Of a stretch of 64,000 bases of DNA, positions 1 through 25,528 are shown piece by piece. The DNA lies in the NCBI GenBank assembly GCA_963783675.1, contig CAWAOU010000001.1, positions 15,905-79,904 on the forward strand, in the 5' to 3' direction. The translations under genes and the position numbers were made by a program. This stretch comes from an uncultured Gammaproteobacteria bacterium. GTDB lineage: Bacteria > Pseudomonadota > Gammaproteobacteria > Competibacterales > JAHEDQ01. Below the pieces are notes generated by a model. The model saw only the letters and a program-made list of their open reading frames with translations, made no database searches and was not told where the DNA came from. The number at the start of each line of letters is the position of its first letter. Positions within the stretch are counted from its first letter, which is position 1.

Positions 1-1395
1 GCGACGGTCGTGTCGGTCAAGGCATCGAGGCCGACGTAGACGATGCCCTTGCGCCGGATCACGTCCAGCCACTCGAAGATCGGGCGGCTGTCGTCCTCGT
101 TCAGGTAGTTCGGGGAGATCAGCTCCGCGAGCTTGCCGGTGGTGAGCTTTTCCATCAGCGGTCCTACCGAGCTCACGATCTTGTCGAAGTAGGTCTTGTC
201 GTACTTGAACGCCGAGACCAGTCCATCGAGTACCGGGTCGTAGAGGTCCTGCGTCTGCAGGTAGCGCATCATGGCGATCGCATCCCGGTCGCGGCCCCTG
301 CAGCGCTGACGAGAGATTGCGCTCGCTGATCTTGGCGGCGATCTCCTCGACCTCCGTCGCCCAGTTCTCGACGCCGTTACGGCGCAGATGCTCGCGCGCG
401 TACTCGACGAACAGCGGCTCGATGTCGTTGATGTAGCGCCGGATCTGCTGGTAGTCCGGCCGCCGGCCGAGCGCCACCAGCGCACGGGCAATGATATTGA
501 CGAAGCGCCAGGCGAACTCCTTGAAGGCGGCCGAGTTGCCCTCGCTCGGCAGCTGGTTCGCGATCCGGGTCGCCACCTCGGTGATGCGCGAGAAACTGCC
601 GATCGCGTTGTAGCGCGCCGACACCTCGGGAAAGCCGAGATGGAACAGGTAGAAGTCCTTGGCGCGGCCGGCCCGCTTGGCTTCTGCGTACACGCGCCGC
701 AGCAGGTCGGCATCGCCCTTCGGGTCGAAGACGATGACCACATCGCCGCGGCGGATGTCCTGGGTGATGAGGATCTCGGCGAGCCGGGTCTTGCCGACCC
801 GGGTGGTGCCGAGCACCAGGGTGTGGCCGACGCGCTCGCCAAGATCCATCCAGACATCTTGCTCGTTGGGCTCCACCGCATGCAGCGCCGGCGTGCCGCC
901 GACCGCAGCGAGGGGCTTGAGCGGATTCCACCAGACGCGCGCTGACGCAGCAGCCAGGCGAAGGCGCTCGAGTACCGGCACGCGATTCCCAGGCGATCTC
1001 CTTCTGCCGCGCCCATCGATAGAGCGTCCCGGGCTGCACGTAGTGCTGCACCTCCGGGCGGATGGTGTCGCGCAGGCGCTGGGTGTGTCGTTGGGTCCAG
1101 CGGAATCCGCGGCCAAGGAACAGCTTGTGGCGACTCAGCGGAATGCGGTCCGCGCGCAGCCGATAGGTCGGCAGGCGCCGCATGTTGCGCTGGTAGCGCA
1201 GGACCCGCCAGGCCTGGCGGGTGCGGACGAACGCCAAGCACGAACAGCGCGGCGGCCGCGGCGCATGGCGATGCCGGGTGGCATCATCAGTGCCCAGGGC
1301 GCCAGGAGCGCCATGCTGCCCGTGGCCGCCGCGACCAGCGCCGACCAGAGCTCTACCGGCGGGCGCAGCAGCGCCTCGACGGGATGCGGACTCAT
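1..1395 (-). pseudogene. traD: ICE coupling protein TraD (PFGI-1/ICEclc class), degraded left-arm copy; continues beyond window start
   Basis: Minus-strand translation starts MSPHPVEALLRPPVELW (ATG 1395..1393) and parallels the copy at 11246... The homologous reading changes frame at least four times (~1262, ~1245, ~975, ~295). Walker A GTTRVGKT is readable at ~787-810 in a shifted frame. Confidence 0.85.
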
Positions 1396-1977
1396 TGCTC
1401 GATGCCGCGCCGGGAGATCAGGACCGGGATGTGCTCGAGTCCGAGGGCCCGCGCGATATCGGTGGCCGGCGCCGGCAGGATCGGGCAGCCCTTTGGCCAG
1501 TCGGGCGATCGTCCGCAGGTCATCGACCGTGTCGGCCTCGACCAGCATCCCGGCCGCGCCGATCTCGGCCAGTCGGTCGCGGTGGGTGGCGAGCCACTCC
1601 CTGGAGCGCGGATCGGAGCCGATCAGAAAGAACGGCCGCGGCAGTGTCGCCCCATTGGGCAGGCGCAGCGGCCGCCGCGTCACCGGTCCAGGCGTGAGCC
1701 CGGGCGTTCGGATCGGCAACAGGCGTGTCAGATCGGCGACACCCAATTCAGGGGTTGGCGGTGGCGCCGGACTGGCCTGCGGCTTGCCGGCTCGATCGGG
1801 TGCTTCGTCGAATACCGCGAGGAAGGGCGCCAGGGGCTGGGTATTGCCACTGTCGTAGATCACGGCCAGCGCGGCGAATACGCCTGTCGGGGCCGAAAGA
1901 ACCCCGATCAGGAGGGCCCGGCCGATCAGGCGTTTGGCCTTGTCTCGATGGCTTTCCACGCTCACCGCCTTACCCAT
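1392..1977 (-). pseudogene. ICE protein, PFL_4695-like family (TIGR03765-like), frameshifted near the C-terminus
   Basis: MGKAVSVESHRDKAKRLIGRALLIGVLSAP...VIYDSGNTQPLAPFL...FFLIGSDPRSREWLATHRDRLAEIGAAGMLVEA parallels the intact gene 10695..11249. After ...LAKGLP (~1490) the homologous tail (ILPAPATDIARALGLEHIPVLISRRGIEQ) is in another frame. The expected stop overlaps the traD' ATG (ATGA). Confidence 0.7.
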
Positions 1978-2521
1978 GCCCGGTGAGTCGCTGCCAATGC
2001 TTGAATACCCGCGCCCGATAACCGGCGGCCCGTTCTGCATTGTTCGGCGCGTGGTAGCAGCCGACAGCCTCCCACCAGTCCTGTCGGTCACTGAAAACAT
2101 TCCTGCAGGATCGCTGCCCCGACGCGCAGGTTGTGATACGGATCGAGGGCACGCTGCGCACTGCCGAGGCGATCGCGGTGATAGCGCCAGTTGACCTGCA
2201 TGAGCCCGATATCGATCGACGTAGTCCCCTGGTCGAGCGCCCGGCGCAAGGCATCCCGAGCCGCTTGCTGCGAGGCAAAGAAATGCCCCCGGCCTCGGAC
2301 ATTCAGGGTCCAGGGCCAGGGGCGAAGGTTGCCTGTACTGTCGATCCGACGGGCAGATTCCGTCAGACCGATGGCGTACAGGACTTCGGGGGGGATCTGA
2401 TAGGCGTTGGCAACCGATTGGTAACCGGCCGGCACCGACGCACATGGCCGCACTGACCCAGTGTCAACAAGAGGGCAAACAGCCCACCGAGGATCGGCAG
2501 CGGTTGCGGCGACATCGTCAT
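1970..2521 (-). pseudogene. Lytic transglycosylase (SLT domain) of the ICE transfer region, frame-disrupted at both ends
   Basis: Core ORF 2088..2552 has LYAIGLTESARRIDSTGNLRPWPWTLNVRG...DIGLMQVNWRYH, matching 10136..10684. The signal-peptide segment (MTMSPQPLPILGGLFALLLTLGQ) and the last ~40 aa (SDRQDWWEAVGCYHAPN...) sit in other frames. Confidence 0.75.
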
Positions 2522-3297
2522 AGCGCCGAGGCCGGCAGCACGGCGAGCACATCGCCGCGGCGGCGCAACAGATACGGCGGCTGCCCCTGCCCCCGGCTCA
2601 GCTCGGCCAGCGCACCGGCGTCATGATTGAGGGTGACGCGACGGGTGCGTACCCAGATCGGTTCGATGGCCTGGCCATTCGCCCATTCACGCACGGCCGC
2701 ATCATCGCCTGGCTCGGCACCGATCAGATAGATGTCGATGCCGGCCACCGCATTGATCTTGCCGAGCAGTCGGCGCAGCACGGCGTCGCAGACGGCACAA
2801 TCGGGCCGGGTGAAAAACAGCACCCGGTCCTCCGACTGCAGCTCGACGTCGGTCGTCGACGCTGCCGGCAGCTGCGCACGGTCGATCAGGCTCTCGGCCG
2901 GAAACAGGCGTTTCCAGGCCGCGTCGTAGGCATGCTGAAAGGCCAGAATGCGGTCCGCATCATCGCGCATCATCTGCGCCCAGCGTTCGGCATAGCGCCG
3001 GCGCTCGGCCTCATCCCGCGCATGGATCCCCAACACCTCGATCGGTGAGAGGTTCGCCGGACTGATACTGCCCCGGATGCCTTCCATCAGGCTTTGGTAG
3101 CGGCGCCACTCGGATTCAGAAATCTGCCAGGTCTCGGCACGTTGTCTTTCCAGCGGCGAGAGCGGCGTCGTGATCTGCGTCGTCTGCCCAAGTGCCGAGC
3201 GCGCGGCCTCTGAGGACATCGGCTGATTCGCGTCGACCGATGACATCACCAAGATCGCCAAGAGGGTGCCGGCAAGGGGCTGCCCACACTGGATCAT
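2518..3297 (-). CDS. ICE protein, PFL_4693-like family (TIGR03759-like), thioredoxin-like CxxC; intact copy
   Basis: 259-aa uninterrupted ORF. Contains TPLSPLERQRAETWQISESEWRRYQSLMEGIRGSISPANLSPIEVLGIHARDE...FFTRPDCAVCD...VTLNHDAGALAEL...PYLLRRRGDVLAVLPASAL. Collinear homologue of 9347..10139. Confidence 0.7.
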   Translation of the reverse strand: MIQCGQPLAGTLLAILVMSSVDANQPMSSEAARSALGQTTQITTPLSPLERQRAETWQISESEWRRYQSLMEGIRGSISPANLSPIEVLGIHARDEAERRRYAERWAQMMRDDADRILAFQHAYDAAWKRLFPAESLIDRAQLPAASTTDVELQSEDRVLFFTRPDCAVCDAVLRRLLGKINAVAGIDIYLIGAEPGDDAAVREWANGQAIEPIWVRTRRVTLNHDAGALAELSRGQGQPPYLLRRRGDVLAVLPASAL

Positions 3298-3506
3298 CGG
3301 GGCGCCTCCCCGGTCCAGGGACGCGAGAGGTCTCGCTGGGGCAACGGTCCTTCACCGTATCGACAGGGCTGTTGCTCGGTTGTCGGTGTCATCTGATCGA
3401 CCGGCGCTACCATTGCGGCTCCGGCTGCATGTTCTGCGGCGGGTGGCTGATCCGAGCCGAGGCTCACGGCACCGATCACCAGTAGCAGGACAAGGACGAT
3501 TTCCAT
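3294..3506 (-). CDS. Small single-TM protein between the pilL-like and PFL_4693-like genes
   Basis: MEIVLVLLLVIGAVSLGS... is the positional homologue of 9097..9366 (MEIVFAILILIGAMAAGS...). ATGA overlap with the downstream start. No family recognised. Confidence 0.35.
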   Translation of the reverse strand: MEIVLVLLLVIGAVSLGSDQPPAAEHAAGAAMVAPVDQMTPTTEQQPCRYGEGPLPQRDLSRPWTGEAPR

Positions 3507-3510
3507 CGGC

Positions 3511-3991
3511 TTACCTCGATGGCACAGCGGGCGATACAGCCGGCTCTGGTTGCGCGGCAACACAGCGCTCGAGACTGACAAGCCGGTGCAACGGATCCTC
3601 GACCAGGCGAAACGCCGGGCCGGCCAAGGTCTCGAGGGCGATCCGCAACGGCATCGGGCCCAACGCGCGATGTCCCTGCGGTAGTGGGAGTTTCAGCAGC
3701 GCGGCCCTTGCGGGACTTGCCGCTGCTTCGTCAGACTAGCCGATAACCGCTGGGCTCCAGCAGGTAGTGCATCGCCTGCCCGACGGTGATCACCGATGCA
3801 GGAAACACCACGTTGACGATCGCGGAGAGGAGTTGGACTTGCTCCTGCGTTGGCAGCGCCCGAACAGTCGCATAGCGACCGACCTGGATCTCCGAGGCGA
3901 AAACCACGGGTGGCGACATGAGCCCGAGCACGGTGAGTACACTGCCCAGCCGCCGGTATTGCGATCGGAGTCGCCGTTGAAATCGCCGCAT
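3511..3991 (-). pseudogene. pilL: PilL-like conjugative-transfer-region protein (TIGR03748-like), frameshifted
   Basis: ORF 3731..3991 gives MRRFQRRLRSQYRRLGSVLTVLGLMSPPVVFASEIQVGRYATVRALPTQEQVQLLSAIVNVVFPASVITVGQAMHYLLEPSGYRL and then a stop. Homology to 8613..9092 continues in the +1 frame (SDEAAASPARAALLKLPLPQGHRALGPMPL...LVEDPLHRLVSLERC). Confidence 0.6.
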
Positions 3992-4261
3992 CGTTCAGAC
4001 CCTTCGCCGCTGGGAGAACGTCCCTCACGTCCTCGTTAGGCGAATGTTGTCGCGGCAATCATCGGGAAGGAACGGAAAACCGCGGCACCGGGGCGCGCGG
4101 TTGTCGAACGGCGTGGATGGCGATCGGAATGTTCCGCGTGGAACCTTGGCTCAGCGATATTGGCAGTGACACGAAGCATTGATCTGCGTAGGCGCCTTCT
4201 CTGACCGTACATTTAAACAAAGGTGTGCGCACCGTCCCTACTCGCCGGCTTCACCGACCTA

Positions 4262-4382
4262 GGTAAACCTTATGGAAAGCTTTCCATAACGTCTATTTAG
4301 GAAAGTAATCGGTTATGTAAAGCAGCAAACACCACAGGCCACAAAATCAGAAAGTTACCTCTTCATCGCTTTACATAATATC
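4262..4382. repeat. RIT left terminus (palindromic core plus subterminal boxes)
   Basis: GGTAAACC-TTATGGAAAGCTTTCCATAA-CGTCTATTTAGGAAAGTAATCGGTTATGTAAAGC, then ~44 bp, then GCTTTACATAAT. About 55 of the first 65 positions match the reverse complement of the right terminus by hand alignment. Confidence 0.8.
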
Positions 4383-4436
4383 TCCGCTCGTTCCCCGTGG
4401 CCGCAAATGCCACCTAAAACCGACGGAGGATTATGT

Positions 4437-5705
4437 ATGAGTGCCCGCAACTCCAAATCCCAGAAGCTTTCGCTGGACGAATTGGTCTTTGGCGCCTTGA
4501 GCCAACTCCAGGTGCATGACTACGACCAACGCTCGATACGTCGCTACCAGACCGTGTGGCGAAAGTTGATCACCTTTGCCCGACGGCAAGGTTACAAAGG
4601 CAAACTTCGAGAGCAACTCATCCTCGATTTCCTGGCACACCATGAAATCAGTGCTCAAGTGCCGGTGGCGTCGTTGGAAGGATGGAAAAAACATGCCGAG
4701 CATGCCCTGAAGTTGTTATGGCACTACGCCCGCTTCGGTTACTTCGAACGCGGCAAGCAGCATGCCGCAAAGCTACGCATTCCGAGCGCCATGCAGAAAA
4801 GCCTGCGTGACTACACGAAATACTGCGAGGAGGAACGTTACCTGAGTCCTCGTACGGTGAACGATCATGTTCGACAGGTCGGCATCTTTCTCGACTTCCT
4901 GGGGAAGCGCGATGTCGACAACTTCAGCCGGATCCGTGCTGAAGATTTGTCAGACTTCGTTTATTCCCTGTCACGTTATCGCCGGAAAACGGTTGCCGTG
5001 ATCGTTTCCTGCGTGCGGCAATACCTCAGGTTTCTGTTCTACAAGAGACAAGTAGACCAAGACCTGAGCGACAGCATACCCGGGGTATGCTTGCCAGAAG
5101 GAGCCGCGATCCCTTCAGCCTGGGACAAGGAACTCCTTGCTCGGTTGCTGGACCGAATTGATCGGCATTCACCGAGGGGCAAGCGCGATTACGCCGTACT
5201 ACTGCTCGCCTGCCGGTTAGGCCTGCGATCCAGTGATATCAGGGCGCTGACCCTCGATCACATTGACTGGGCCGCAGAGACGATCACCTTCACCCAGGTC
5301 AAGACCGGAATGCCGTTGCGTTTGCCTTTGACCAATGAGGTAGGAAACGCGTTGATAGACTATCTCAGGTCCGTGCGTCCGGAAACGCAGTATCGCGAAG
5401 TCTTTCTCAGCTTGAGGCCACCTTTCAAGCCGTTCAGCAAGAACACTCACCTACACCATATCGTCAAGTACTGGCGAGAACTGGCTGGCATTCAATTCAA
5501 AAGCCCGCAGCGGCAAGGTTTGCATTCGCTGAGGCATAGCCTGGCGACACACTTGCTGGACGACGGTGCACCATTTTCCTTGATAGCCGAGATTCTGGGA
5601 CACGCCTCGACGTCCTCGACGATGATTTATGCCAAGGCGAGCGTCGAATCGTTACGGCAGGTCGCGTTGTCCACTCCGGAGGTGCGGCATGTCAACGAAG
5701 CGTAA
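4437..5705 (+). CDS. Tyrosine recombinase, RIT subunit A
   Basis: GGAGGA 6 nt upstream of ATG 4437. Motifs ACRLGLRSSDIRALTL (Arg I), HSLRHSLATHLL (HxxR), LGHASTSSTMIYAKA (catalytic Tyr). Confidence 0.9.
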   Translation: MSARNSKSQKLSLDELVFGALSQLQVHDYDQRSIRRYQTVWRKLITFARRQGYKGKLREQLILDFLAHHEISAQVPVASLEGWKKHAEHALKLLWHYARFGYFERGKQHAAKLRIPSAMQKSLRDYTKYCEEERYLSPRTVNDHVRQVGIFLDFLGKRDVDNFSRIRAEDLSDFVYSLSRYRRKTVAVIVSCVRQYLRFLFYKRQVDQDLSDSIPGVCLPEGAAIPSAWDKELLARLLDRIDRHSPRGKRDYAVLLLACRLGLRSSDIRALTLDHIDWAAETITFTQVKTGMPLRLPLTNEVGNALIDYLRSVRPETQYREVFLSLRPPFKPFSKNTHLHHIVKYWRELAGIQFKSPQRQGLHSLRHSLATHLLDDGAPFSLIAEILGHASTSSTMIYAKASVESLRQVALSTPEVRHVNEA

Positions 5706-6687
5706 GCTACTCAGCTATAAAAGCCCCCTGGCGCCGTTGATGGAACGGCTCGTGCGCGAGAAGCGTGCCGGCGGGTACAAGTACGACACGCCGGCGCGGG
5801 TACTCGTAGATCTTGACGATTTCCTGTGCGGCACGACCATCAAGTCCATTGAATTGCCGAAAGCGCTCGTCACGCAATGGCTGGCGCAAAATCCGCATGA
5901 GCAGCCCTCAACACAGCAACGCCGGATTATTCTTGTACGACAACTGGCGCGCTTGATGATACGGCTGGGTTATCCCGCGTATGTCCCGCCCGAAGGTCTC
6001 GGTCCCCGCCGTTCCTATATCTTCTCGCCCAGAATCCTGACGCGCGAGGAGGTGCACCGGATCATTCAAGCCATCGACAACCTTCCGCCCAGCTCGAAAT
6101 CGCCGCTTCGCCACATCATCCTGCCCGAAGTGTTCCGCTTGCTGTATGGCTGCGGCTTTCGACTGAGCGAGGTATTGAACCTGAAAGTCCGTGATGTCGA
6201 TCTTCAACAAGGTGTCATCACGGTACGGCAGGGCAAGTTCGGCAAGGATCGTCTCGTGCCACCCGCCATGGAGATGGTGGAGCGCTTGCGACGCTACGCC
6301 GGTGAACTGGAAAAACGAACCCTGGCAAGGCAAGAGCCTGAAGCGTACTTCTTCCCGTCCGCCCGACAAGCCGCCTGGGGCAACTCGACTATCTACCACC
6401 TCTTTCGCAAGGCGTTGCTCCACTGCGGCATCCCGCACGGCGGACGAGGCAAGGGACCCAGAGTCCACGACCTGCGCCATGCCTTCGCCGTTCACCGTCT
6501 ATTGCAGTGGTATGAGGAAGGCGCTGACCTGAACGCCAAGTTGCCCTTTCTCGTTGCCTATCTCGGCCACAAGGATTTTACCGGCACGCAGAAATACCTT
6601 CACCTGACCGCCGAGCTGTTCCCGGAACTGACCGCGCGAATGAATCAGCAATTTGGCGGCGTGATACCGCAGGGGAGGCAATCATGA
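5689..6687 (+). CDS. Tyrosine recombinase, RIT subunit B
   Basis: GGAGG upstream of ATG 5689; overlaps the A stop by 17 nt. Motifs GCGFRLSEVLNLKVRDV, HDLRHAFAVHRL, LGHKDFTGTQKYLHL. Confidence 0.9.
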   Translation: MSTKRKLLSYKSPLAPLMERLVREKRAGGYKYDTPARVLVDLDDFLCGTTIKSIELPKALVTQWLAQNPHEQPSTQQRRIILVRQLARLMIRLGYPAYVPPEGLGPRRSYIFSPRILTREEVHRIIQAIDNLPPSSKSPLRHIILPEVFRLLYGCGFRLSEVLNLKVRDVDLQQGVITVRQGKFGKDRLVPPAMEMVERLRRYAGELEKRTLARQEPEAYFFPSARQAAWGNSTIYHLFRKALLHCGIPHGGRGKGPRVHDLRHAFAVHRLLQWYEEGADLNAKLPFLVAYLGHKDFTGTQKYLHLTAELFPELTARMNQQFGGVIPQGRQS

Positions 6688-7691
6688 AGTCAGCAACATT
6701 TTCCAGGCATGTCAGTCACTTCCTCGGCCATTACCTTGCAGGCCAACGAAATCTGAGCCCAAACACCATCAAGGCGTATCGTGACGTCTTTGTGCTGCTA
6801 CTGCGATTTTGCCGGGATGTACAAGGCATCGCTGTTGAAAAACTTGCGCTCGAGCAGATCGATGCTCGGTTGGTCGGCGCCTTTCTCGACCATCTGGAAC
6901 ATGAACGCCATTGCGCGATCCGTACGCTCAATCAACGGCTGGCCGTATTGCATGCGTTCTTCCGATATCTGCAAGTCGAAGAACCCGCACTGTCGCTGCA
7001 AAGCCAGCGGGTCCTCGCCATCCCGTTACGCCGCTTTACTCGTCATGAAGTAGGCTACCTGTCCAGGGATCAGCTCGCTGCGCTTCTGGCTCAACCGGAC
7101 CCCGGACGGCCCGCCGGCAGGCGAGATGCGGTACTGCTCAGTGTTCTCTATGACTCGGGAGCCCGCGTGCAGGAACTCATTGACCTGACGGCCGGCGATG
7201 TGCGTCTGGAAGCCCCCGCGCAAGTGAGGATCCTGGGCAAGGGACGCAAAGTGCGGGTCGTACCGTTGATGGAGAATACCGCCCGGCTAATGCAGCAGTA
7301 CATTGACGAGAACAATCTGGCCCTGCCTGAAAACTACGACCGCCCGTTGTTCCGAAACAAACAAGGTAATCCGTTGACCCGGGTCGGGGTCAACTACATT
7401 CTGCAAAAGTACCTGCAGAAGTTGCGGGAGACCCGTCCCGATCTGAAACAAAAAGTCAGCCCCCATACCCTGAGACACACGAAGGCAATGCACCTCGTTC
7501 AGGGTGGCGTCTCTCTGGATATCGTGCGTGACTTTCTAGGCCACGTCGACATCAAGACCACCGAGCTGTATGCGAGAGCGAATCTCGAGATGAAGCGAGC
7601 AGCGATCGAAAAAGTCAGTGCAACACCTGCCCCTGACATTCCTTCGTGGAAGGAAAACAAGTCGCTGCTGCAATGGCTGCAAAGTCTATAA
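6684..7691 (+). CDS. Tyrosine recombinase, RIT subunit C
   Basis: ATGA overlap with the B stop. Motifs DSGARVQELIDLTAGDV, HTLRHTKAMHLV, LGHVDIKTTELYARA. Confidence 0.9.
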   Translation: MKSATFSRHVSHFLGHYLAGQRNLSPNTIKAYRDVFVLLLRFCRDVQGIAVEKLALEQIDARLVGAFLDHLEHERHCAIRTLNQRLAVLHAFFRYLQVEEPALSLQSQRVLAIPLRRFTRHEVGYLSRDQLAALLAQPDPGRPAGRRDAVLLSVLYDSGARVQELIDLTAGDVRLEAPAQVRILGKGRKVRVVPLMENTARLMQQYIDENNLALPENYDRPLFRNKQGNPLTRVGVNYILQKYLQKLRETRPDLKQKVSPHTLRHTKAMHLVQGGVSLDIVRDFLGHVDIKTTELYARANLEMKRAAIEKVSATPAPDIPSWKENKSLLQWLQSL

Positions 7692-7740
7692 AGGGCATGA
7701 TCATGCCGAATCGAAGTCGTGGGCCACCTGTGACCAGCGA

Positions 7741-7860
7741 CGCATTATGTAAAGCGTTTGGGAAGCAAGTCTTCGATGTTATTGGCTTTTGCCGAGCTCG
7801 TTTGCATAACCACTTACTTTCCTAAATAAACCTTATGGAAAGCTTTCCATAACGTGTACC
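7741..7860. repeat. RIT right terminus (inverted copy of the left terminus)
   Basis: ATTATGTAAAGC, then ~43 bp, then GCATAACCACTTACTTTCCTAAATAAACC-TTATGGAAAGCTTTCCATAA-CGTGTACC. Confidence 0.8.
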
Positions 7861-7970
7861 TCGGTCAATGACGGTTATGTCAGCGGATTGAGGAGGGCGG
7901 CTCGATCGATCGTGGTCCCCCGAAAAATGCCATTATTGCAATCAATCTCATGCGCATTCGGAGATGGCCG

Positions 7971-8207
7971 ATGGCAAACCTTGTCATCCGAAACTTGGAT
8001 CCCCGCATCGTCGATGCGCTGAAGCGGCGTGCTGCGAAAAACGGTCGTAGCGCCGAGGCCGAGCATCGTGCCTTGCTCGAGGAGTTATTGTTGCGCCCCA
8101 AGGGCAAGAGTTTCGCGGAGGCCCTCGTGAGCATGCCGAACGTCGGCGAGGACGAAGACTTCGAACGGGGAAAGGACCCGATCGAACACGATCGTGTATT
8201 TGATTGA
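7971..8207 (+). CDS. Ribbon-helix-helix antitoxin (FitA/VapB-like, plasmid-stability type)
   Basis: MANLVIRNLDPRIVDALKRRAAKNGRSAEAEHRALLEELL is typical of Arc/FitA-type RHH antitoxins. Overlaps the downstream PIN ORF by 14 nt. An ATTGCAAT palindrome lies at 7935-7942 upstream. Confidence 0.7.
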   Translation: MANLVIRNLDPRIVDALKRRAAKNGRSAEAEHRALLEELLLRPKGKSFAEALVSMPNVGEDEDFERGKDPIEHDRVFD

Positions 8208-8568
8208 CACCAATGTCATCAGTGAGTCGCGTAAGCGGTCAAAGGCCGACAGCGGTGTTCGGGGGTTCTTTAGGCGGGTGGCCAAAACGGACATCGCCCG
8301 GCGCTGCGGCCGGCTGCGTGTGCCTCATCCAGAAAATGTGCTCGACAAGAAGGTCGCCGCAACCGCATTGATCTACGACCTGACGGTTGTTATGCGCAAT
8401 CACAAGGATTTCTCGAAAACAGATGTTCGGCTGCTGAATCCCTTCAAGCAATGTCCGATGTTCTGCGCGGAACATCGTTCTTCTCATCCGCGCCGTCCCA
8501 CAACCGCGCAGGCCCGTGCCGTGGTTTTCCGTTCCTTCCAAGTGACCGTCGCGACAGCATTCGCCTAA
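8194..8568 (+). pseudogene. vapC: VapC/FitB-like PIN toxin with internal deletion and lost stop
   Basis: MYLIDTNVISESRKRSKADSGVRGFF... jumps directly to ...GRLRVPHPENVLDKKVAATALIYDLTVVMRNHKDFSKTDVRLLNPF. About 45-50 central residues expected in FitB/VapC are absent. The ORF then reads ~40 codons on into the right ICE arm. Confidence 0.6.
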
Positions 8569-8612
8569 CGAGGACGTGAGGGACGTTCTCCCCCTGGCAA
8601 AGGGTCTGAACG

Positions 8613-9092
8613 ATGCGGCGATTTCAACGGCGATTTCCATCGCAATACCGGCAGTTGGGCAGTGCACTCGCACTGCTCGGGCTCGTGTCGTCACCTATTG
8701 TGTTTGCCGTCGAGGTCCAAGTAGGTCGATATGCGACCGTTCGGGCGCTGCCAACCCAGGAGCAGATCCAACTCCTCTCGACGATCGTCAATGTGGCGTT
8801 TCCTGCTTCGGTGATCACCGTCGGCCAAGCGGTCGAGTACCTGTTGCAGCCAAGCGGCTACCGCCTGGCTCCCGAGCAGACCGCGGAGCTCGCCCGGGCA
8901 ACCCTTCTTAAGCTTCCACTGCCGGAACCGCACCGGATGTTGGGACCGATGCCGCTGAAAACCGCCCTTGAAACCTTGGTAGGTCAGGCCTTTCGGCTGG
9001 TGGAGGATCCCGTGCACCGATTGGTGAGCTTTGAGCGCTGTGAGCCCGTTAGGCACTGGCCATCCGCCAGCGCAGAAGCTGGAGCGAGGTGA
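8613..9092 (+). CDS. pilL: PilL-like conjugative-transfer-region protein (TIGR03748-like), intact copy
   Basis: 159-aa ORF: MRRFQRRFPSQYRQLGSALALLGLVSSPIVFAVEVQVGRYATVRALPTQEQIQLLSTIVNVAFPASVITVGQAVEYLLQPSGYRLAPEQ... First gene of the block, collinear with PFGI-1 PFL_469x genes. Confidence 0.6.
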   Translation: MRRFQRRFPSQYRQLGSALALLGLVSSPIVFAVEVQVGRYATVRALPTQEQIQLLSTIVNVAFPASVITVGQAVEYLLQPSGYRLAPEQTAELARATLLKLPLPEPHRMLGPMPLKTALETLVGQAFRLVEDPVHRLVSFERCEPVRHWPSASAEAGAR

Positions 9093-9096
9093 GCCC

Positions 9097-9366
9097 ATGG
9101 AGATCGTGTTTGCCATTCTGATCCTGATCGGCGCCATGGCTGCCGGCTCAAACGCGTCGACTACCGACGAAATCCGCACCGAGAAAAATCTCGTGGCCGA
9201 GTCTAAGGAAACCGGAACTGCGCCTCGCGTAGAGACGAGGCATGGCCCTTGCCGGTTCCCAGCCGGGCGGCTCATCCAACGGGATCTGACGGTACCGCGT
9301 GCGTCGACCGCGGTGAATTCTGGCGTGAACTCTGAAGAGGCGAGGCATGGTTGCGCCGACCAATAG
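9097..9366 (+). CDS. Small single-TM protein
   Basis: MEIVFAILILIGAMAAGS...; GAGG upstream. Positional homologue of 3294..3506. Confidence 0.35.
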   Translation: MEIVFAILILIGAMAAGSNASTTDEIRTEKNLVAESKETGTAPRVETRHGPCRFPAGRLIQRDLTVPRASTAVNSGVNSEEARHGCADQ

Positions 9367-10139
9367 AGGCGGATGGATGTTGGCCGGTACCACGTTGGCC
9401 CTGGGGATAGTCATGTTGGTCCACGCGGGACCGGTGGTCACCTCGGACATCGAACGCTCCCAGTTCGATCAGACGACCGACGTCATGACGCCACTTTCAT
9501 CGATCGAGAAGACACGCGCAGAGAGTTGGAATCTCTCCAACATCGAGTGGCGCCGCTACCGGCACTTGATGGAGGGGATTCGCGGCAGCATCAGTCCGGC
9601 AACCCTTTCCCCCGTCGAGGTGTTGGGTATCCATGCCCGAGATGAAGGGGAGCGCCAGAGCTATGCCGAACGCTGGGCGCGCATGATGCGCGACGATGCC
9701 GAAAGGATCCTTGCGTTTCAGCATGCCTACGATCAGGCATGGCGGCGGCTCTTCCCGGCGGAACCGCTCATTGACCCTGCGCAGCGACCAAGAGCCGAGG
9801 CGGCCGACGCGGCGCTGCAACCCAATGATCGCGTATTGTTCTTCACCCGGCCCGACTGCGCGAGCTGCAACGTACTCCTCCAGCGATTACTCAAGCGGAC
9901 CGACACCCTGGCGGGGATCGATGTCTATCTCCTTGGATTATCGCCCGACGATGACAACGCCGTCCGAGACTGGGCCGAACAACAGTATGATCGCGCCGCG
10001 CTGGGTGCGCAGTCGCCGGGTCACGCTCAACCACGATGGTGGCGCGCTGTCTGAACTGACCCAGGGAAAGGGTGACGTGCCCTATCTGCTGCGCCGGCGC
10101 GGTGACGTCCTGGCCGTGCTGTCAGCGTCGGCACTGTGA
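9347..10139 (+). pseudogene. ICE protein, PFL_4693-like (TIGR03759-like), single frameshift near 9985
   Basis: ORF 9347..10054 matches 2518..3297 through ...FFTRPDCASCN...VRDWAEQQ. The conserved tail (IAPRWVRSRRVTLNHDGGALSEL...PYLLRRRGDVLAVLSASAL) is in the frame of ORF 9696..10139. Confidence 0.65.
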
Positions 10140-10684
10140 GCATGTTGCGTCGACCGCCCTGGGTTCTCTTTGCGCTGCTCTCGCTGGGATTGGCGTCTCA
10201 TCCGTCGGTCCATGCATCGGTCCCGGTCGGCTACCAACAGGTGGCCGACGCCTACGATCTCCCCGCCGAAGTCCTGTACGCCGTAGCCCTGACGGAATCT
10301 GCCCGTCGGGTCGACAGTACAGGCAACGTTCGCCCCTGGCCCTGGACGCTGAACGTCCGGGGCAGGGGGCACTTTTTTGCATCACGGCAGGAGGCAGAAG
10401 CGGCCTTGCAAGGCCTGCTCGACCAGGGGCGGACATCTGTCGACATTGGGCTGATGCAGGTGAACTGGCGGTATCACGGACAACGCCTCGGGAGCCCAAA
10501 GCGCGCACTCGATCCCTATCACAACCTGCGGGTGGCGGCGGAGATCCTGCGCGATTGCCACCAGAGCCGCCAAGACTGGTGGGCGGCCGTGGGTTGCTAC
10601 CACGCGCCCAACCGTCCGCAGCGGGCGGCCCGGTATCGGGCGCGGGTGCGCGCGCACTGGCAACGCGTTACCCAACGGGGTTAA
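10136..10684 (+). CDS. Lytic transglycosylase (SLT domain), intact copy
   Basis: Signal peptide MSMLRRPPWVLFALLSLGLASHPSVHA. Contains LYAVALTESARRVDSTGNVRPWPWTLNVRG...DIGLMQVNWRYH...WWAAVGCYHAP. Confidence 0.85.
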   Translation: MSMLRRPPWVLFALLSLGLASHPSVHASVPVGYQQVADAYDLPAEVLYAVALTESARRVDSTGNVRPWPWTLNVRGRGHFFASRQEAEAALQGLLDQGRTSVDIGLMQVNWRYHGQRLGSPKRALDPYHNLRVAAEILRDCHQSRQDWWAAVGCYHAPNRPQRAARYRARVRAHWQRVTQRG

Positions 10685-10694
10685 GGAGGCGGGC

Positions 10695-11249
10695 ATGGCA
10701 ATCCGTCGAGTTAACACCAATCGTGTGTTGGGCAAGGCCTTGCTGATCTTGATACTCGCGGCGCCATCCCTGGCTTTTTCTGCACTGACGGTGATCTACG
10801 ACAGTGGTAAGACCTATCCCTTAGCCCCCTTTCTCGAGGTGTTCGACGAGGAACCGAATCAAGGGAATAGGTCACAGGCAAGTCCGACTCCACCGAGACC
10901 GCCGCCCTTGGGTGCCGCGGATCTCGAGCGGATCCTGCCGATTCAGTCGCCGGGACTTATGCCGGGGAGGGTGGAACCGCGGGCCGTACAACGGCCTTTC
11001 GCTCGACCGTTCTTTCTCATCGGCGCCGACAGCTTTTCCAGAGAATGGCTCGCTACCCACCGCGATCGACTCGCCGAGATCGGGGCGGTCGGGATGCTGG
11101 TCGAGGCAGAGACGCTCGACGATCTGCGCGCGATAGCGGCGATCGCCGAAGGGCTGCCGATTCTGCCGGCCTCGGCCAACGACATTGCCGAGGCCTTGGG
11201 TCTGTCGCATTACCCGGTGTTGATTACCAAAGATGGCCTCGAGCAGTGA
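10695..11249 (+). CDS. ICE protein, PFL_4695-like family (TIGR03765-like), intact copy
   Basis: 184 aa, N-terminal signal/TM. Contains VIYDSGKTYPLAPFL...FFLIGADSFSREWLATHRDRLAEIGAVGMLVEAETLDDL. The stop overlaps the traD GTG (GTGA at 11246-11249). Confidence 0.7.
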   Translation: MAIRRVNTNRVLGKALLILILAAPSLAFSALTVIYDSGKTYPLAPFLEVFDEEPNQGNRSQASPTPPRPPPLGAADLERILPIQSPGLMPGRVEPRAVQRPFARPFFLIGADSFSREWLATHRDRLAEIGAVGMLVEAETLDDLRAIAAIAEGLPILPASANDIAEALGLSHYPVLITKDGLEQ

Positions 11250-13400
11250 GCCGCCACCCCGTCGAGGCGTTGCTGCGTCCGCCGGTCGAACTCTGGTCGG
11301 CGGTTGTCGCACTCGCGACGGCCGGCATCGCGGTGCTCGCTCCCTGGGCACTGATGATGCCCCCGGGCGTGGCCTACGGTGCGGCTTTGGTCTTGGCCTT
11401 GCTCGGACTCATGCGTTGGCGCCAGGCCTGGCGGGTGCTGACCTACCAGCGCAACCTGCGCCGACTGCCCACCTACCGGTTGCGCGCGGACCAGATGCCG
11501 GTGAGTCGGAGGAAACTCTTCCTCGGCCGGGGCTTCCGTTGGACCCAGAAGCATACCCAGCGCCTGCGTGACACCCTCCGCCCGGAGGTTCAACGTTACG
11601 TTCAACCTGGGTCGCTTTATCACTGGGCCCGCCGCAAGGAGGTGGCCTGGGAAGAGACACTGCTACTGAAACAGGTGGCAGCCGGGCTGCGCAGCCGGGC
11701 CTGGTGGAATCCGCTCAAGCCCCTGCCACCGGTCGGTGGCAAGCCCGCACTGCACGCCGTGGAGCCCGAAGAGCAGGATGTCTGGATGGACATCGGTGAG
11801 CGCGTCGGCCATACCCTGGTGCTGGGCACCACACGGGTCGGCAAGACCCGGCTGGCGGAGATCCTGATCACCCAGGACATCCGCCGCGGAGATGTGGTGA
11901 TCGTCTTCGACCCCAAGGGCGATGCAGATCTGCTGCGCCGGGTCTATGCGGAGGCCAAACGGGCCGGACGGGAGAAAGACTTTTACCTGTTTCATCTCGG
12001 CTATCCCGAGGTGTCCGCGCGCTACAACGCCATCGGCAGTTTCTCCCGGATTACCGAAGTCGCCACCCGCATCGCCAACCAGCTGCCGAGCGAAGGCAAC
12101 TCGGCGGCGTTCAAGGAGTTCGCGTGGCGCTTCGTCAACATCATCGCGCGCGCCCTGGTGGCGCTGGGCCGGCGTCCGGACTACCAACAGGTCCGCCGCT
12201 ACATCAACGACATCGAGCCGCTGTTCGTCGAGTACGCCCGCGAGCACCTGCGGCGGCACGGGCAGGAAAACTGGGCGGGCGAAGTCGAGGAGATTGCCGC
12301 CAAGATCAGTGAGCGGAATCTCTCCTCGGCGCTGAAGGGGCGCGACCGGGACGCGATTGCGTTGATGCGCTACCTGCAGGCACAAGACCTCTACGATCCC
12401 GTCCTGGATGGACTGGTCTCGGCGTTCAAGTACGACAAGACCTACTTCGACAAGATCGTCAGCTCGGTCGGTCCGCTCATGGAGAAGCTCACCACCGGCA
12501 AGATCGCCGAGCTGATCTCCCCCAACTACCTGGATGCCGACGACAACCGGCCCATCTTCGAGTGGCTGGAGGTGATTCGGCAAAAGGGGATCGTCTATGT
12601 GGGACTGGATGCGCTGACCGACACCACGGTGGCGAGTGCGGTCGGCAACGCCATGTTCGCGGACCTGGTCTCGGTGGCCGGTCATATCTACAAGCACGGC
12701 GTCGAAGATCCGGGCGACAGCCCAAGCGGTGCGGTCCGTGACAGAGGGATCGTCAGCCATGCCGACCATCTCCCTGCACGCCGACGAGTTCAACGAGCTG
12801 ATCGGCGACGAGTTCGTGCCGCTCCTGAACAAGGCCGGCGGCGCGGGCTTCCAGGTGACCGCCTACACCCAGACCTGGTCGGATGTGGAGGCGCGGATCG
12901 GCAACCGGGCCAAGGCAGGGCAGGTGGCCGGCAACTTCAACACCCTCGTGATGCTCCGGGTGAAGGAGCTGGCCACCGCCGAGATGCTGACCGATCAGTT
13001 ACCCAAGGTCGAGGTGTTCACCCTGATGAGCGTGTCCGGCGTCGATGATTCCTCGGACCCCACCTCGGGCGTCGATTTCAAGTCGCGCAACGAAGACCGC
13101 ATCAGCGTCTCCGAGGTGCCGATGCTCACCCCGGCGGAACTGGTCGCCCTGCCGAAGGGCCAGGCGTTCGCGCTGCTCGAGGGCGGGCAGCTGTGGAAGC
13201 TGCGCATGCCACTGCCGGACACCCGCATGGACCCGGTCATGCCGGAGAGCCTGGCGGCGGTCGCCAACGAGATGGAACGGACCTACATCACCAACGATCA
13301 ATGGTACCGGCAGCGCGAGACCTGGTGGCATGCGGTGGCCGATGCAGCACCATCCGTTGAATCTCCCGCCACCTCCTCAGAAAAGAACGACGATGGCTGA
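11246..13400 (+). pseudogene. traD: ICE coupling protein TraD (PFGI-1/ICEclc class), single frameshift at ~12700-12760
   Basis: VSRHPVEALLRPPVELW...GTTRVGKT (Walker A)...VAGHIYKHGVEDPGDSP is in the frame of ORF 11045..13048. The conserved C-terminal part (PTISLHADEFNELIGDEFVPLLNKAGGAGFQVTAYTQTWSDVEARIG...) is in the frame of ORF 12636..13400. Confidence 0.8.
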
Positions 13401-23372: not shown

Positions 23373-24731
23373 ATGGCAAAGCCTCCACTAGAAATTCCCG
23401 GTCCGTTGGGCGCTTCGCGGAAGAGCCGCTGGCTCGCGGGCTTTCGGCGACGATCCCATCCTACGCTCGCGTTGCTCGGAGAGCTTGTGCCCCGCGTTTT
23501 CGATGTTGTCGCGAGCGCTTCGCTGCTTGTGCTTCTATCGCCGCTGTTGGTGACGCTGGCGTTGCGGAGTCGGCATCAGGCGGGTTCTGCGTTAGCGGGA
23601 AACAGGCTGGTCGGCCGGTATCAGATTCCTTTCCGCCGCCTCTCGTTCGCCGGAAACGGGCGATTTCGCGATCTCGCGGTATGGTTGAACGTATTTCGGG
23701 GCGACATGGCCATTGTTGGTCCTCGACCGCTGACTGCAGAAGACGCTGCCGCCGTTCCGGTCGAAGATTTGGTGCGGTTCACGGTCCGGCCGGGCTTGAT
23801 TTCGCCGTTCCGAATCCGAAGCCGCATCGGAATGGCTCATGAACGCGAGTCGGCGATGGATCGGGACCTGGTTTACAGTCAGACGGTCAAGGGTGACCTG
23901 GGGCTTGCGGCGCGATCGATGGTGTCTAGCGTCCTTGGCGGAGGCGGTACTCCGAGGGAAATGCCTCCGATTCTCAACTTCTTCGGAATACCCGTGGTCA
24001 ACACGACCATGAACGAGGCCGTGGACTGGGTTGTCACCAATGCAGCGGGTACGGGAAAAAAACTGATGGCCTTCGTCAATCCGGACTGCCTCAATATTGC
24101 CTGGAAGAACATGGATTACCGTAACATTCTGACCCAGGCGGATCGTGTCTTGCCGGATGGGATCGGCGTCCACCTCGGTTGCCGTATGCTCGGTCAAGCA
24201 TTGCAAGCGAACGTGAACGGGACAGATATGTTTCCCTTACTGTGTGAGGCGGCAGCACGCGCACGGCTTCCAATCTATCTGCTCGGTGCACGGCCCGGCA
24301 TTGCCCAGGCCGCGGCGGACAATATGGTCAAACGCTTTCCCGAGCTGAAGGTCGCGGGCGCGAGAGACGGCTATTTTCGACCCGAGGAAGAAGAAGCCGT
24401 GGTTGACGCGATAAACGATTCGGGGGCACGGATCCTGCTTACAGCCTTCGGTGCACCCCGTCAGGAGCTTTGGTTAGGACGCTGGCGGGATCGACTGGTG
24501 CCGCCGGTCACCATGGGCGTCGGCGGGCTGTTCGATTTCTACTCTGGGCGCATCGCGCGCGCACCGGTATGGATGCGGGAGATGGGGCTGGAGTGGGTTT
24601 TCCGGTTGATGCAAGAACCCGGTCGCATGTGGCGGCGCTACGTGATAGGCAACCCCCTCTTTCTATTCCGCGTGCGGCGGCAGGCGAAGCACCCGGAGCG
24701 GTTTGCTTTGCCAAAGGGTTCGGGCGGTTAG
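23373..24731 (+). CDS. Fusion: degenerate sugar-transferase (PGT-like) domain plus WecB/TagA/CpsF glycosyltransferase
   Basis: The N-terminus RVFDVVASASLLVLLSPLLV...RDLAVWLNVFRGDMAIVGPRPL is PGT-like with DE replaced by DL. The C-terminus FGIPVVNTTMNEAVDWV...FVNPDCLNIA...LPDGIGV...YLLGARPG...TAFGAPRQELW...GVGGLFDFYSG matches WecB/TagA/CpsF. Confidence 0.75.
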   Translation: MAKPPLEIPGPLGASRKSRWLAGFRRRSHPTLALLGELVPRVFDVVASASLLVLLSPLLVTLALRSRHQAGSALAGNRLVGRYQIPFRRLSFAGNGRFRDLAVWLNVFRGDMAIVGPRPLTAEDAAAVPVEDLVRFTVRPGLISPFRIRSRIGMAHERESAMDRDLVYSQTVKGDLGLAARSMVSSVLGGGGTPREMPPILNFFGIPVVNTTMNEAVDWVVTNAAGTGKKLMAFVNPDCLNIAWKNMDYRNILTQADRVLPDGIGVHLGCRMLGQALQANVNGTDMFPLLCEAAARARLPIYLLGARPGIAQAAADNMVKRFPELKVAGARDGYFRPEEEEAVVDAINDSGARILLTAFGAPRQELWLGRWRDRLVPPVTMGVGGLFDFYSGRIARAPVWMREMGLEWVFRLMQEPGRMWRRYVIGNPLFLFRVRRQAKHPERFALPKGSGG

Positions 24732-24778
24732 TCTCTTTTTCCCATTCATTCGCAGATTACAGGATCGTTCGACGTGGA

Positions 24779-25513
24779 ATGAAAGAACAGACCCACGAGC
24801 AAAAAATGCGCGAGCTTCTGCTGGAGCGCTACGGCAGCATCGGTCAGTCGACGTTCAAGCACCGGTTGCGCTTCTATTTGAAGCGAGCCGGATGGGTGGG
24901 TGTCGTGAAAGGGGCCTATCTGGTCAAGCGGGTATTCGATATAGTCGTCGCCGCCATTCTTCTGGTACTCCTTTTTCCCGTGTTCCTGACCGTGGGTATC
25001 GCCATCCGGTTGGAGGATCCCGGGCCTATCCTCTTCAAACAGAAGCGAGTGGGACGCTGGGGTACGCTGTTCACCATGTGGAAGTTTCGTTCCATGTACA
25101 CCGATGCGGAGGAGCGAAAGACGGAGATCATGGCGCAAAACGAAATGGAAGGGGGGGTCACTTTCAAGATGAAGGATGACCCGCGGGTAACCAAGGTGGG
25201 TCGCATTATCCGGAAGACGTCCATCGATGAATTGCCGCAGCTGTGGAACGTGGTGAAGGGCGACATGTCCTTAGTGGGGCCGCGGCCCCCGGTTCCGCAG
25301 GAGGTGGACGAGTATTCTTTGTCCGATCGCCGACGCCTTGAGGTGATCCCTGGGATTACCTGTATCTGGCAAGTGTCTGGCCGCTCCGACATACCGTTCG
25401 ACCAGCAGGTAGAGCTCGACGTGCAGTACATCCAGTCTCAGTCCTTCTGGACCGACATCAAGATTTTGTTGAAGACGGTCCCCGCCCTATTGTTTGGCAC
25501 CGGAGCCTATTAA
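24779..25513 (+). CDS. Polyprenyl-phosphate glycosyl-1-phosphate transferase (WbaP/EpsB C-terminal type), canonical
   Basis: RVFDIVVAAILLVLLFPVFL...GPILFKQKRVGRWGTLFTMWKFRSMY...DPRVTKVGRIIRKTSIDELPQLWNVVKGDMSLVGPRPP. Confidence 0.9.
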   Translation: MKEQTHEQKMRELLLERYGSIGQSTFKHRLRFYLKRAGWVGVVKGAYLVKRVFDIVVAAILLVLLFPVFLTVGIAIRLEDPGPILFKQKRVGRWGTLFTMWKFRSMYTDAEERKTEIMAQNEMEGGVTFKMKDDPRVTKVGRIIRKTSIDELPQLWNVVKGDMSLVGPRPPVPQEVDEYSLSDRRRLEVIPGITCIWQVSGRSDIPFDQQVELDVQYIQSQSFWTDIKILLKTVPALLFGTGAY

Positions 25514-25528
25514 GGGAGCAAAGAGCGC

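Follow-up and report, generated by a model that had tools for sequence, protein, structure and literature searches.

The recombinase-in-trio (RIT) elements known from pHG1 and C. metallidurans CH34 (Van Houdt et al. 2009, 2012; Ricker et al. 2013) are about 3.5 kb long and carry three recombinase genes in a constant order with overlapping ends, framed by long imperfect inverted repeats with an end palindrome; they sit in genes of other mobile elements, and published insertions lie in tnpA of IS66, in radC of an integrative and conjugative element (ICE) and in a Tn6049-like transposase gene. How they move is poorly defined, as an earlier note on the DNA studied here had put it: their mobility has not been reproduced and their target specificity is untested (2023 survey of tyrosine-recombinase transposons, PMC10214605; also PMC3414803). 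We analysed a 64-kb stretch of DNA from an uncultured gammaproteobacterium (contig CAWAOU010000001.1), called the window below, in which positions 4264-7858 hold an intact RIT element, ritA-ritB-ritC between inverted arms of ~120 bp. It shares the features just listed with the known RITs, and differs from them in having the palindrome at both ends and in lying between two inverted ICE segments. The element is a further member of a known family; what it adds is a testable model of RIT ends. We suggest that strand exchange probably takes place in 6-bp spacers beside the palindrome, which would be shared by two cores resembling the Xer site dif, and that the copy in the window probably stems from a rearrangement between two RITs.

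The earlier identification of the locus as a RIT is borne out by its genes (Table 1). RitA, RitB and RitC all match Pfam PF00589 over nearly the full-length catalytic domain (E about 1e-27 to 1e-31), and HxxR together with LGH(x9)Y is found in each of them; judged from these motifs, they are three catalytically plausible tyrosine recombinases. The genes overlap, ritB and ritC through ATGA and ritA and ritB by 17 nt if ritB starts at 5689, and in tblastn dozens of loci show the order RitA-RitB-RitC. With the third gene of the C. necator pHG1 trio, annotated as three integrases in a row, RitC shares 64.6% identity, and RitB is 79-95% identical to relatives from marine sediment metagenomes. By NCBIfam the Rit proteins are Xer-like but below cut-off, with XerC/XerD scores of 111-184 bits vs cut-offs of 330-335. 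RitA is expected to have two core-binding domains (Smyshlyaev et al. 2021, PMC8138268); in its 432-aa open reading frame (ORF) Pfam gives one SAM-like domain at residues 134-220, and ~130 N-terminal residues have no match. Between the ends, Pfam finds tyrosine recombinases only, and no DDE or other transposase gene. An exact-protein look-up with RitC returned no identical record, and megablast of the element against a plasmid collection gave no match.

In the following, PAL denotes the 20-bp palindrome, N6 a 6-bp spacer, and N6a and N6b the two spacers that flank PAL. PAL is present exactly twice in the window; by chance no occurrence would be expected, not even at a tolerance of 3 mismatches. 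The termini are inverted over ~120 bp, as had been noted: 4251-4326 and 7796-7871 are 84% complementary over 76 nt, and a further inverted box pair (CTTTACATAA on the left, TTATGTAAAG on the right) stands beyond a 45-nt spacer at each end. Within these inverted termini the + strand carries the same 29-mer, TAAACCTTATGGAAAGCTTTCCATAACGT (TAAACC-TTATGGAAAGCTTTCCATAA-CGT), at both 4264-4292 and 7827-7855; this direct repeat, already recognised in the earlier note, is even longer, with 92% identity over 38 nt (4258-4295 vs 7821-7858). Whichever origin of the window copy applies, the 29-mer is N6a plus PAL plus the first 3 nt of N6b. The 9-mer CGGTTATGT does occur both outside the right end and inside the left arm, although its distance from PAL is not identical at the two ends, as had been thought, but 19 vs 20 nt; the outside copy is absent from the equivalent flank of relatives and may be chance or a relic.

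PAL is not a peculiarity of this lineage. A scan for the exact 20-mer TTATGGAAAGCTTTCCATAA, with one genome per species, gave at least 120 loci (L001-L120 in our numbering), spanning Alpha-, Beta-, Gamma- and Deltaproteobacteria, Bacteroidota, Firmicutes, Ignavibacteria, Verrucomicrobia, Actinomycetota and others. In about half of the matches listed, PAL lies ~100 nt past ritC or ~130 nt ahead of ritA, and the Rit proteins at these loci, again among the matches listed, are only 25-50% identical to those of the window; the PAL site is conserved far more strongly than the enzymes. The element-side layout is constant, with one box TTATGNAAAG at +7, another at +24 and an inverted one around +80 to +100. 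The consensus of 59 distinct arms reads GCTTTCCATAA-N6-TTATGnAAAG-7 nt-TTATGnAAAG; in the first box TTAT is 96-100% and G 84% conserved, and the top-base frequency in N6 is only 30-50%. Read in this way, the arms are arrays of a ~10-bp putative recombinase box, TTATGNAAAG, and PAL is two such boxes back to back, its halves having their TTATG/CATAA ends facing outward. The PAL equivalent of Salipiger, TAATGATCAC/CTCTCCATTA, has a centre that is not palindromic, and the RIT of pHG1 has the same N6-palindrome-N6'-element-N6 layout around a different palindrome (TAGCGC-AAATGTGCTGCAGCACATTT-GCGCTA ... TAGCGC). The PAL sequence itself was not found in any paper of the literature searched.

The positions of exchange are suggested by copies that have PAL at one end only. 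This is the case in 16 RITs from other genomes, in which the far end joins the target at the terminal box. With PAL oriented to the left, the outer N6 and the far N6 agree at 6/6 positions in ten of these elements and at 5/6 in four (14/16 at 5/6 or better), giving a mean identity of 5.44/6 vs 1.4-1.6/6 in shifted controls (permutation p < 1e-5); that is, the unit made up of PAL, N6 and element is flanked by a 6-bp direct repeat. The inner spacer approximates the reverse complement of this outer repeat (mean 4.9/6, and 6/6 in 6/16 elements). A 6-bp repeat is likewise found on pHG1 (TAGCGC), in Pseudosulfitobacter and Salipiger, and in the closer relatives L126 (gag-CGTGTA-element-TAAGCT-PAL-CGTGTA), L127 (TATGCT-PAL-AGCCTA-element-TAGGCT) and L129 (GATCTA ... 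GGTCTA); the N6 consensus in the window's lineage is nGTnTA. The right end is without PAL in L124, L127 and L128, and the left end in L126 and L129; among these, L128 has 94.5% nucleotide identity to the window element. Related copies in sediment metagenome contigs part from the window directly after 7852. As a general layout, a direct 29-mer at both ends consequently fails in L124 and L126-L129, by the very comparison with other copies that the earlier note had named as one that could refute it.

The boundaries given by the 6-bp repeat are those at which interrupted genes become whole. In-silico removal of PAL, one N6 and the element leaves long ORFs in which Pfam matches of full length span the junction, and the restored targets are without the palindrome. 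In L127 the restored target is a 299-aa Integrase_1/Phage_int_SAM_2 protein ending ...LGHEREQVTAAYLGR* (...AAYLGR*); the restored C-termini of L129 and L126 read ...SIYLGR* and ...SVYVGR*. In the window's lineage the 6-mer overlaps codons around the catalytic tyrosine of the ICE integrase. Elsewhere, removal restores IstB_IS21 in L019 (P-loop GPPG/VG/KT) and in L022 and L073 (C-terminal GxSYR), a Phage_integrase in L041 (GK/GD/KDR) and an IS66 transposase in L037. It was also seen that the RITs of L019, L022, L073, L097, L037 and L041 interrupt mobile-element genes at conserved motifs, namely the IstB P-loop and C-terminus, RKNxLFAG of IS66 and GKGxKxR of integrases.

Genomes with several copies of one element suggest what the 6-mer is. 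In one alphaproteobacterial genome GGGTCG recurs at each of at least 5 separate insertions of one element. In Salipiger profundus JLT2016 (L138-L141) four identical RITs on plasmids lie in IS110-family transposase genes, in the codons (Y/F)VK, all with GTGAAG; two of them are in copies of one insertion sequence, in which the bodies point in opposite directions and the palindrome equivalent keeps its side. In Pseudosulfitobacter sp. DSM 107133, a closed genome (L134-L137, plasmids d-g), four identical RITs occupy one and the same codon in homologous 'strawberry notch' genes. Throughout the multi-copy sets PAL is on the same target side, and the element body is in either orientation. For movement as a unit, which is probable, the evidence is comparative: in each of two closed genomes 4 plasmids carry identical copies, and interrupted genes are restored precisely. 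Since copies of one element carry the same 6-mer at different sites, the 6-mer would be an overlap region and not a target-site duplication. CGTCCG flanks two of the Pseudosulfitobacter copies on either side. At the far end of L135 the native target 6-mer, GCCATC, is retained; in L134 this GCCATC of L135 forms the inner spacer, and the other junction shows the native GATCTG of L134. This pattern, seen in one pair of copies, suggests a 6-bp overlap carried along from the donor flank, of which it is the expected sign.

We therefore favour, as a likely though not secure reading of these comparisons, a model in which PAL is a pair of putative binding boxes and not the crossover core. A PAL half, N6 and the terminal box would together form a dif-like core CATAA-N6-TTATG, and the joined ends of the free form would read right inverted repeat-N6a-PAL-N6b-left inverted repeat, that is, two cores sharing PAL. 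In integration, strands would be exchanged at the borders of a single N6 with a target bearing a similar 6-mer; we infer these positions from the 6-bp repeats and the restored targets. Because exchange would be at one N6, PAL would be left at one end only and always on the same target side, and as N6a and N6b are approximately reverse complements of each other, the element body could enter in either orientation. The outcome would be the 6-bp repeat seen around PAL, N6 and element.

The earlier note had also argued that the ends are recombinase sites and not the terminal inverted repeats of a transposase, which agrees with our results; its placement of the crossover, in contrast, is not supported. 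It took PAL as the core, with 7-bp arms TTATGGA/TCCATAA around the overlap AAGCTT and the two 29-mers as attL and attR. The 29-bp identity in direct orientation speaks for this, as does the finding that the two-PAL loci L122 and L123 carry the same variant at both ends, the asymmetric variant of L123 being direct; this last asymmetry, however, is equally expected if both PALs derive from one joined-end sequence. The mixed halves of relatives (GGAAAG and GTAATG types) could arise from crossovers at the centre, but point mutation explains them as well, since all four half-site variants exist. Against a crossover at AAGCTT, most RITs, including the ~94% identical L128 and L126, L127 and L129 (79-87% in RitB amino acids), have one end without even half a PAL, and the limits of exchange map to the flanking N6. 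Furthermore, targets are restored without the palindrome, the polarity of the boxes is opposite to that of dif if the centre is taken as spacer, and the centre of the Salipiger equivalent is not palindromic. We thus consider PAL as the core improbable, with the qualification that exchange between two palindromes could still have happened in the case of the window copy. A conventional target-site duplication from DDE-style staggered cuts, with the palindrome merely part of one terminal inverted repeat, would account for the 6-bp direct repeat that flanks the unit in most copies; we give it hardly any credence, as a transposase gene, DDE or other, is missing from the element, one 6-mer recurs at different sites (GGGTCG at least five times, GTGAAG four times), the reverse complement of the 6-mer is carried inside the element, and the two 6-mers of some copies differ in a target/element pattern.

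A variant of the double-core model, which we regard as rather unlikely in its specific form, is a single-strand pathway: N6a-PAL-N6b and the arms would fold into a hairpin that forms the core, one strand would be exchanged, and replication would resolve the product, in the manner of integron attC or of CTX-phage attP with Xer. It would explain why inner and outer spacers are reverse complementary far above chance (4.9/6 on average, 6/6 in 6/16) and why complementarity is kept where the stem sequences vary, and it is in line with the finding that RITs were enriched after exonuclease treatment without a double-strand circle junction, for which hairpins were proposed (PMC5737581), and with the classification of Rit proteins as simple Xer/integron-like recombinases (PMC8138268). 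The same complementarity, however, is expected if both cores match one target 6-mer in either orientation, the spacers of the window copy are only 4/6 complementary, and those of L041 and L080 are not complementary.

Several observations also weigh against the double-core model itself. Spacer transfer is seen in a single pair of copies, and in the Pseudosulfitobacter copies L136 and L137 both junctions show the 6-mer of the element, which simple heteroduplex segregation does not predict. The origin of solo palindromes with long inverted arms, described below, is not accounted for. Free forms were not encountered: a scan of viral contigs for box-N6-PAL-N6-box joined ends gave 0 matches, and the mobilome study that saw RIT enrichment saw no circular junction (PMC5737581). 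Contigs of four sediment metagenomes, compared over 3400-8600, gave fragmentary 90-97% matches and no joints that skip the element or turn back into it; these are assembled contigs only, neutral on excision. The exact cleavage positions are not fixed by such alignments, and the repeat could be 5-7 bp. In the window copy, the C/G difference at 4293/7856 puts the exchange to its left, and as the identity spans 29 bp, the exchange can be placed no finer than left of 4293. Finally, no RIT crossover site was found in the literature; Ricker et al. 2013 (Plasmid 70:226), outside that coverage, may describe some of the architecture.

The window copy differs from its one-PAL relatives in what flanks it, namely two inverted ICE segments of at least 4.3 kb. 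Its left flank (1-4269, - strand) is homologous to 8460-12633 (+ strand), at about 76% over about 3.8 kb (blastn in inverted orientation, 75.7% over 3193 nt and 78% over 587 nt); a TIGR03759-family protein and TraD are coded in both arms, and a PFL_4695-family gene is called in the left one. The usual target in this lineage is the gene of an ICE Integrase_1-family tyrosine recombinase, and both flanks of the window copy keep its 3' stub, matching the restored C-termini of L127, L129 and L126; the body of the integrase gene is absent from the whole window. In one-PAL relatives the PAL side leads into the same ICE genes, and both junctions of the window copy, which has PAL at each end, are PAL-side, or attR-type. 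The earlier suggestion that the target itself had resembled an element end is superseded by this, as both flanks are an integrase 3' stub followed by downstream ICE genes, in inverted order; the unusual insertion context that it implied is supported. The layout is real and recurrent, since L122 (86% nucleotide identity, 7.1-kb contig) shows the same two stubs and two PALs between non-identical flanks. The simplest origin would be recombination, or deletion, between two directly oriented RITs in the integrase genes of two head-to-head ICEs, an event that would remove both integrase bodies and whose reciprocal product would be a PAL-free RIT; alternatively, a free copy might have integrated into a solo PAL site. 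The RIT L142 of S. herbicidovorans (pSHV1, 274-278 kb) was observed to have no PAL at either end and no 6-bp repeat (ggacag ... ctcgag), which fits the predicted reciprocal product.

Features of the window, with the RIT element and its flanks, are listed in Table 1.

Table 1. Features of the RIT element and its surroundings in the window.
Feature	Position	Strand	Remarks
Left ICE arm	1-4263	-	TIGR03759-family gene 2518-3297; PFL_4695/DUF2859 gene 1135-2445; TraD N-terminal part 377-1237; reads outward
Left integrase 3' stub	4251-4268	-	GTT TAC CTA GGT CGG TGA = VYLGR*
Left outer spacer N6a-L	4264-4269	+	TAAACC; same as 7827-7832; position of the 6-bp direct repeat in one-PAL relatives
Left PAL	4270-4289	.	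TTATGGAAAG/CTTTCCATAA; two arm boxes back to back
Left inner spacer N6b-L	4290-4295	+	CGTCTA; predicted core GCTTTCCATAA-CGTCTA-TTTAGGAAAGT (PAL right half and terminal box)
Left arm	4296-4380	+	terminal box TTTAGGAAAG 4296-4305; box TTATGTAAAG 4313-4322; inverted box CTTTACATAA 4369-4378
ritA	4437-5705	+	422 aa from ATG 4437 behind GGAGG; in-frame ATG upstream at 4407; HSLR, LGH..Y
ritB	5689-6687	+	332 aa; tyrosine recombinase; HDLR and LGH..Y motifs
ritC	6684-7691	+	335 aa; tyrosine recombinase; HTLR and LGH..Y motifs
Right arm	7743-7826	+	box TTATGTAAAG 7745-7754; box GTTTGCATAA 7800-7809; terminal box CTTTCCTAAA 7817-7826
Right inner spacer N6a-R	7827-7832	+	TAAACC; predicted core ACTTTCCTAAA-TAAACC-TTATGGAAAGC
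Right PAL	7833-7852	.	second copy of the 20-bp palindrome
Right outer spacer N6b-R	7853-7858	+	CGTGTA; 5/6 vs 4290-4295; same as the direct repeat of relative L126
Right integrase 3' stub	7854-7871	+	GTG TAC CTC GGT CAA TGA = VYLGQ*
9-mer CGGTTATGT	7872-7880, also 4310-4318 inside left arm	+	distance to PAL 19 vs 20 nt
FitA-like ribbon-helix-helix antitoxin gene and overlapping ORF	7950-8207 and 8194-8568	+	in a ~480-bp stretch, right arm only
Right ICE arm	8460-12633	+	TIGR03759 gene 9347-10054; TraD 11045-13048; then TIGR03747 13045-14127; inverted homologue of 1-4144

The left ICE arm runs off the window edge. On the right, the ORF that overlaps the antitoxin gene codes for 124 aa, has no Pfam match and is possibly the toxin partner of the FitA-like protein; relative L125 has the same antitoxin and ORF genes beside its palindrome. 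Downstream of the ICE segment, 23373-26995 holds genes for a WecB/TagA/CpsF-family glycosyltransferase and a sugar-1-phosphate nucleotidyltransferase (polysaccharide synthesis).

In three loci, L087, L120 and L123, the outer flanks repeat each other in inverted orientation as far as the contigs reach (34/34, 89/91 and 39/40). These are short metagenome contigs, and an assembly path through a population with both body orientations could explain such flanks; for the window and L122 such an artefact is excluded, because their flanks differ. Read-through of a hairpin telomere was rejected as a source of the inverted flanks, since reverse-complementing the inner arms does not give the outer flanks. 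Sites with inverted flanks and a solo PAL are what excision from two-PAL copies would produce. Many solo PALs lack arm boxes, and some (L005:4932, L028:3208, L003:6888, L026:5493, L102:364 and others) form the centres of longer perfect palindromes. The stems are variable and, as in L005 and L028, inverted copies of host sequence; that of L028 copies a gene start (ribosome-binding site and ATG). An intrinsic terminator was rejected for L028, as its T and A runs are on the wrong sides. Solo PALs may be the empty sites left by two-PAL copies.

Taken together, these observations allow a wider picture, which we put forward tentatively and think more doubtful than probable as a whole. RITs might be Xer-like transposons with a double dif-like site and an overlap copied from the donor, moving as a folded single-strand N6-PAL-N6 form and homing to motifs of other mobile elements (the catalytic-tyrosine codons of integrases, the P-loop and C-terminus of IstB, and IS66 and IS110 transposases), and recombination between their copies might fuse, delete or invert their hosts and thereby give rise to two-PAL, zero-PAL and solo-PAL sites, of which the head-to-head ICE junction of the window would be an example. 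RITs are widespread across phyla, and the comparison yields a falsifiable map of which 6 bp would be exchanged and of the empty site and joined ends to be expected. They repeatedly disrupt key genes of other mobile elements, and in the window two inverted ICE segments meet at the RIT; such elements may hence be agents of rearrangement and inactivation of conjugative elements.

Among described RITs, a palindromic direct repeat at the ends has a precedent in ritABC of S. herbicidovorans MH, for which 42-bp perfect and 51-bp imperfect direct repeats, themselves imperfect palindromes, were reported at both ends (Nielsen et al. 2017, PMC5737581). Nielsen et al. proposed hairpins and defined no crossover site, and the pSHV1 copy L142 is PAL-free, unlike the window element.

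The likeness to Xer/dif and to integrative mobile elements exploiting Xer (IMEX; CTX phage) lies in 10-11-bp inverted arms ending in CATAA/TTATG around a 6-bp centre and in Xer-like recombinases. For dif itself, the assignment of arms and central region is established. The E. coli site reads GGTGCGCATAA-TGTATA-TTATGTTAAAT (PMC3025954), and the N6 consensus of the window's lineage resembles its central region. Unlike Xer/dif, RITs bring three enzymes of their own, far below the XerC/XerD cut-offs, their cores would share a back-to-back box pair and have extra arm boxes, and their targets are diverse 6-mers and not the chromosomal dif. With Tn916/CTnDOT and Tn554/SE they may share an overlap that need not match the target and is seemingly carried from the donor, as in L134/L135 (for the SE/Tn554 footprint, see PMC10214605). 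RITs nonetheless differ from Tn916, CTnDOT and Tn554 in their recombinases, gene number and end architecture and in having no conjugation genes of their own; moreover, most RIT insertions have matching 6-mers, so that homology between overlap and target seems to be preferred.

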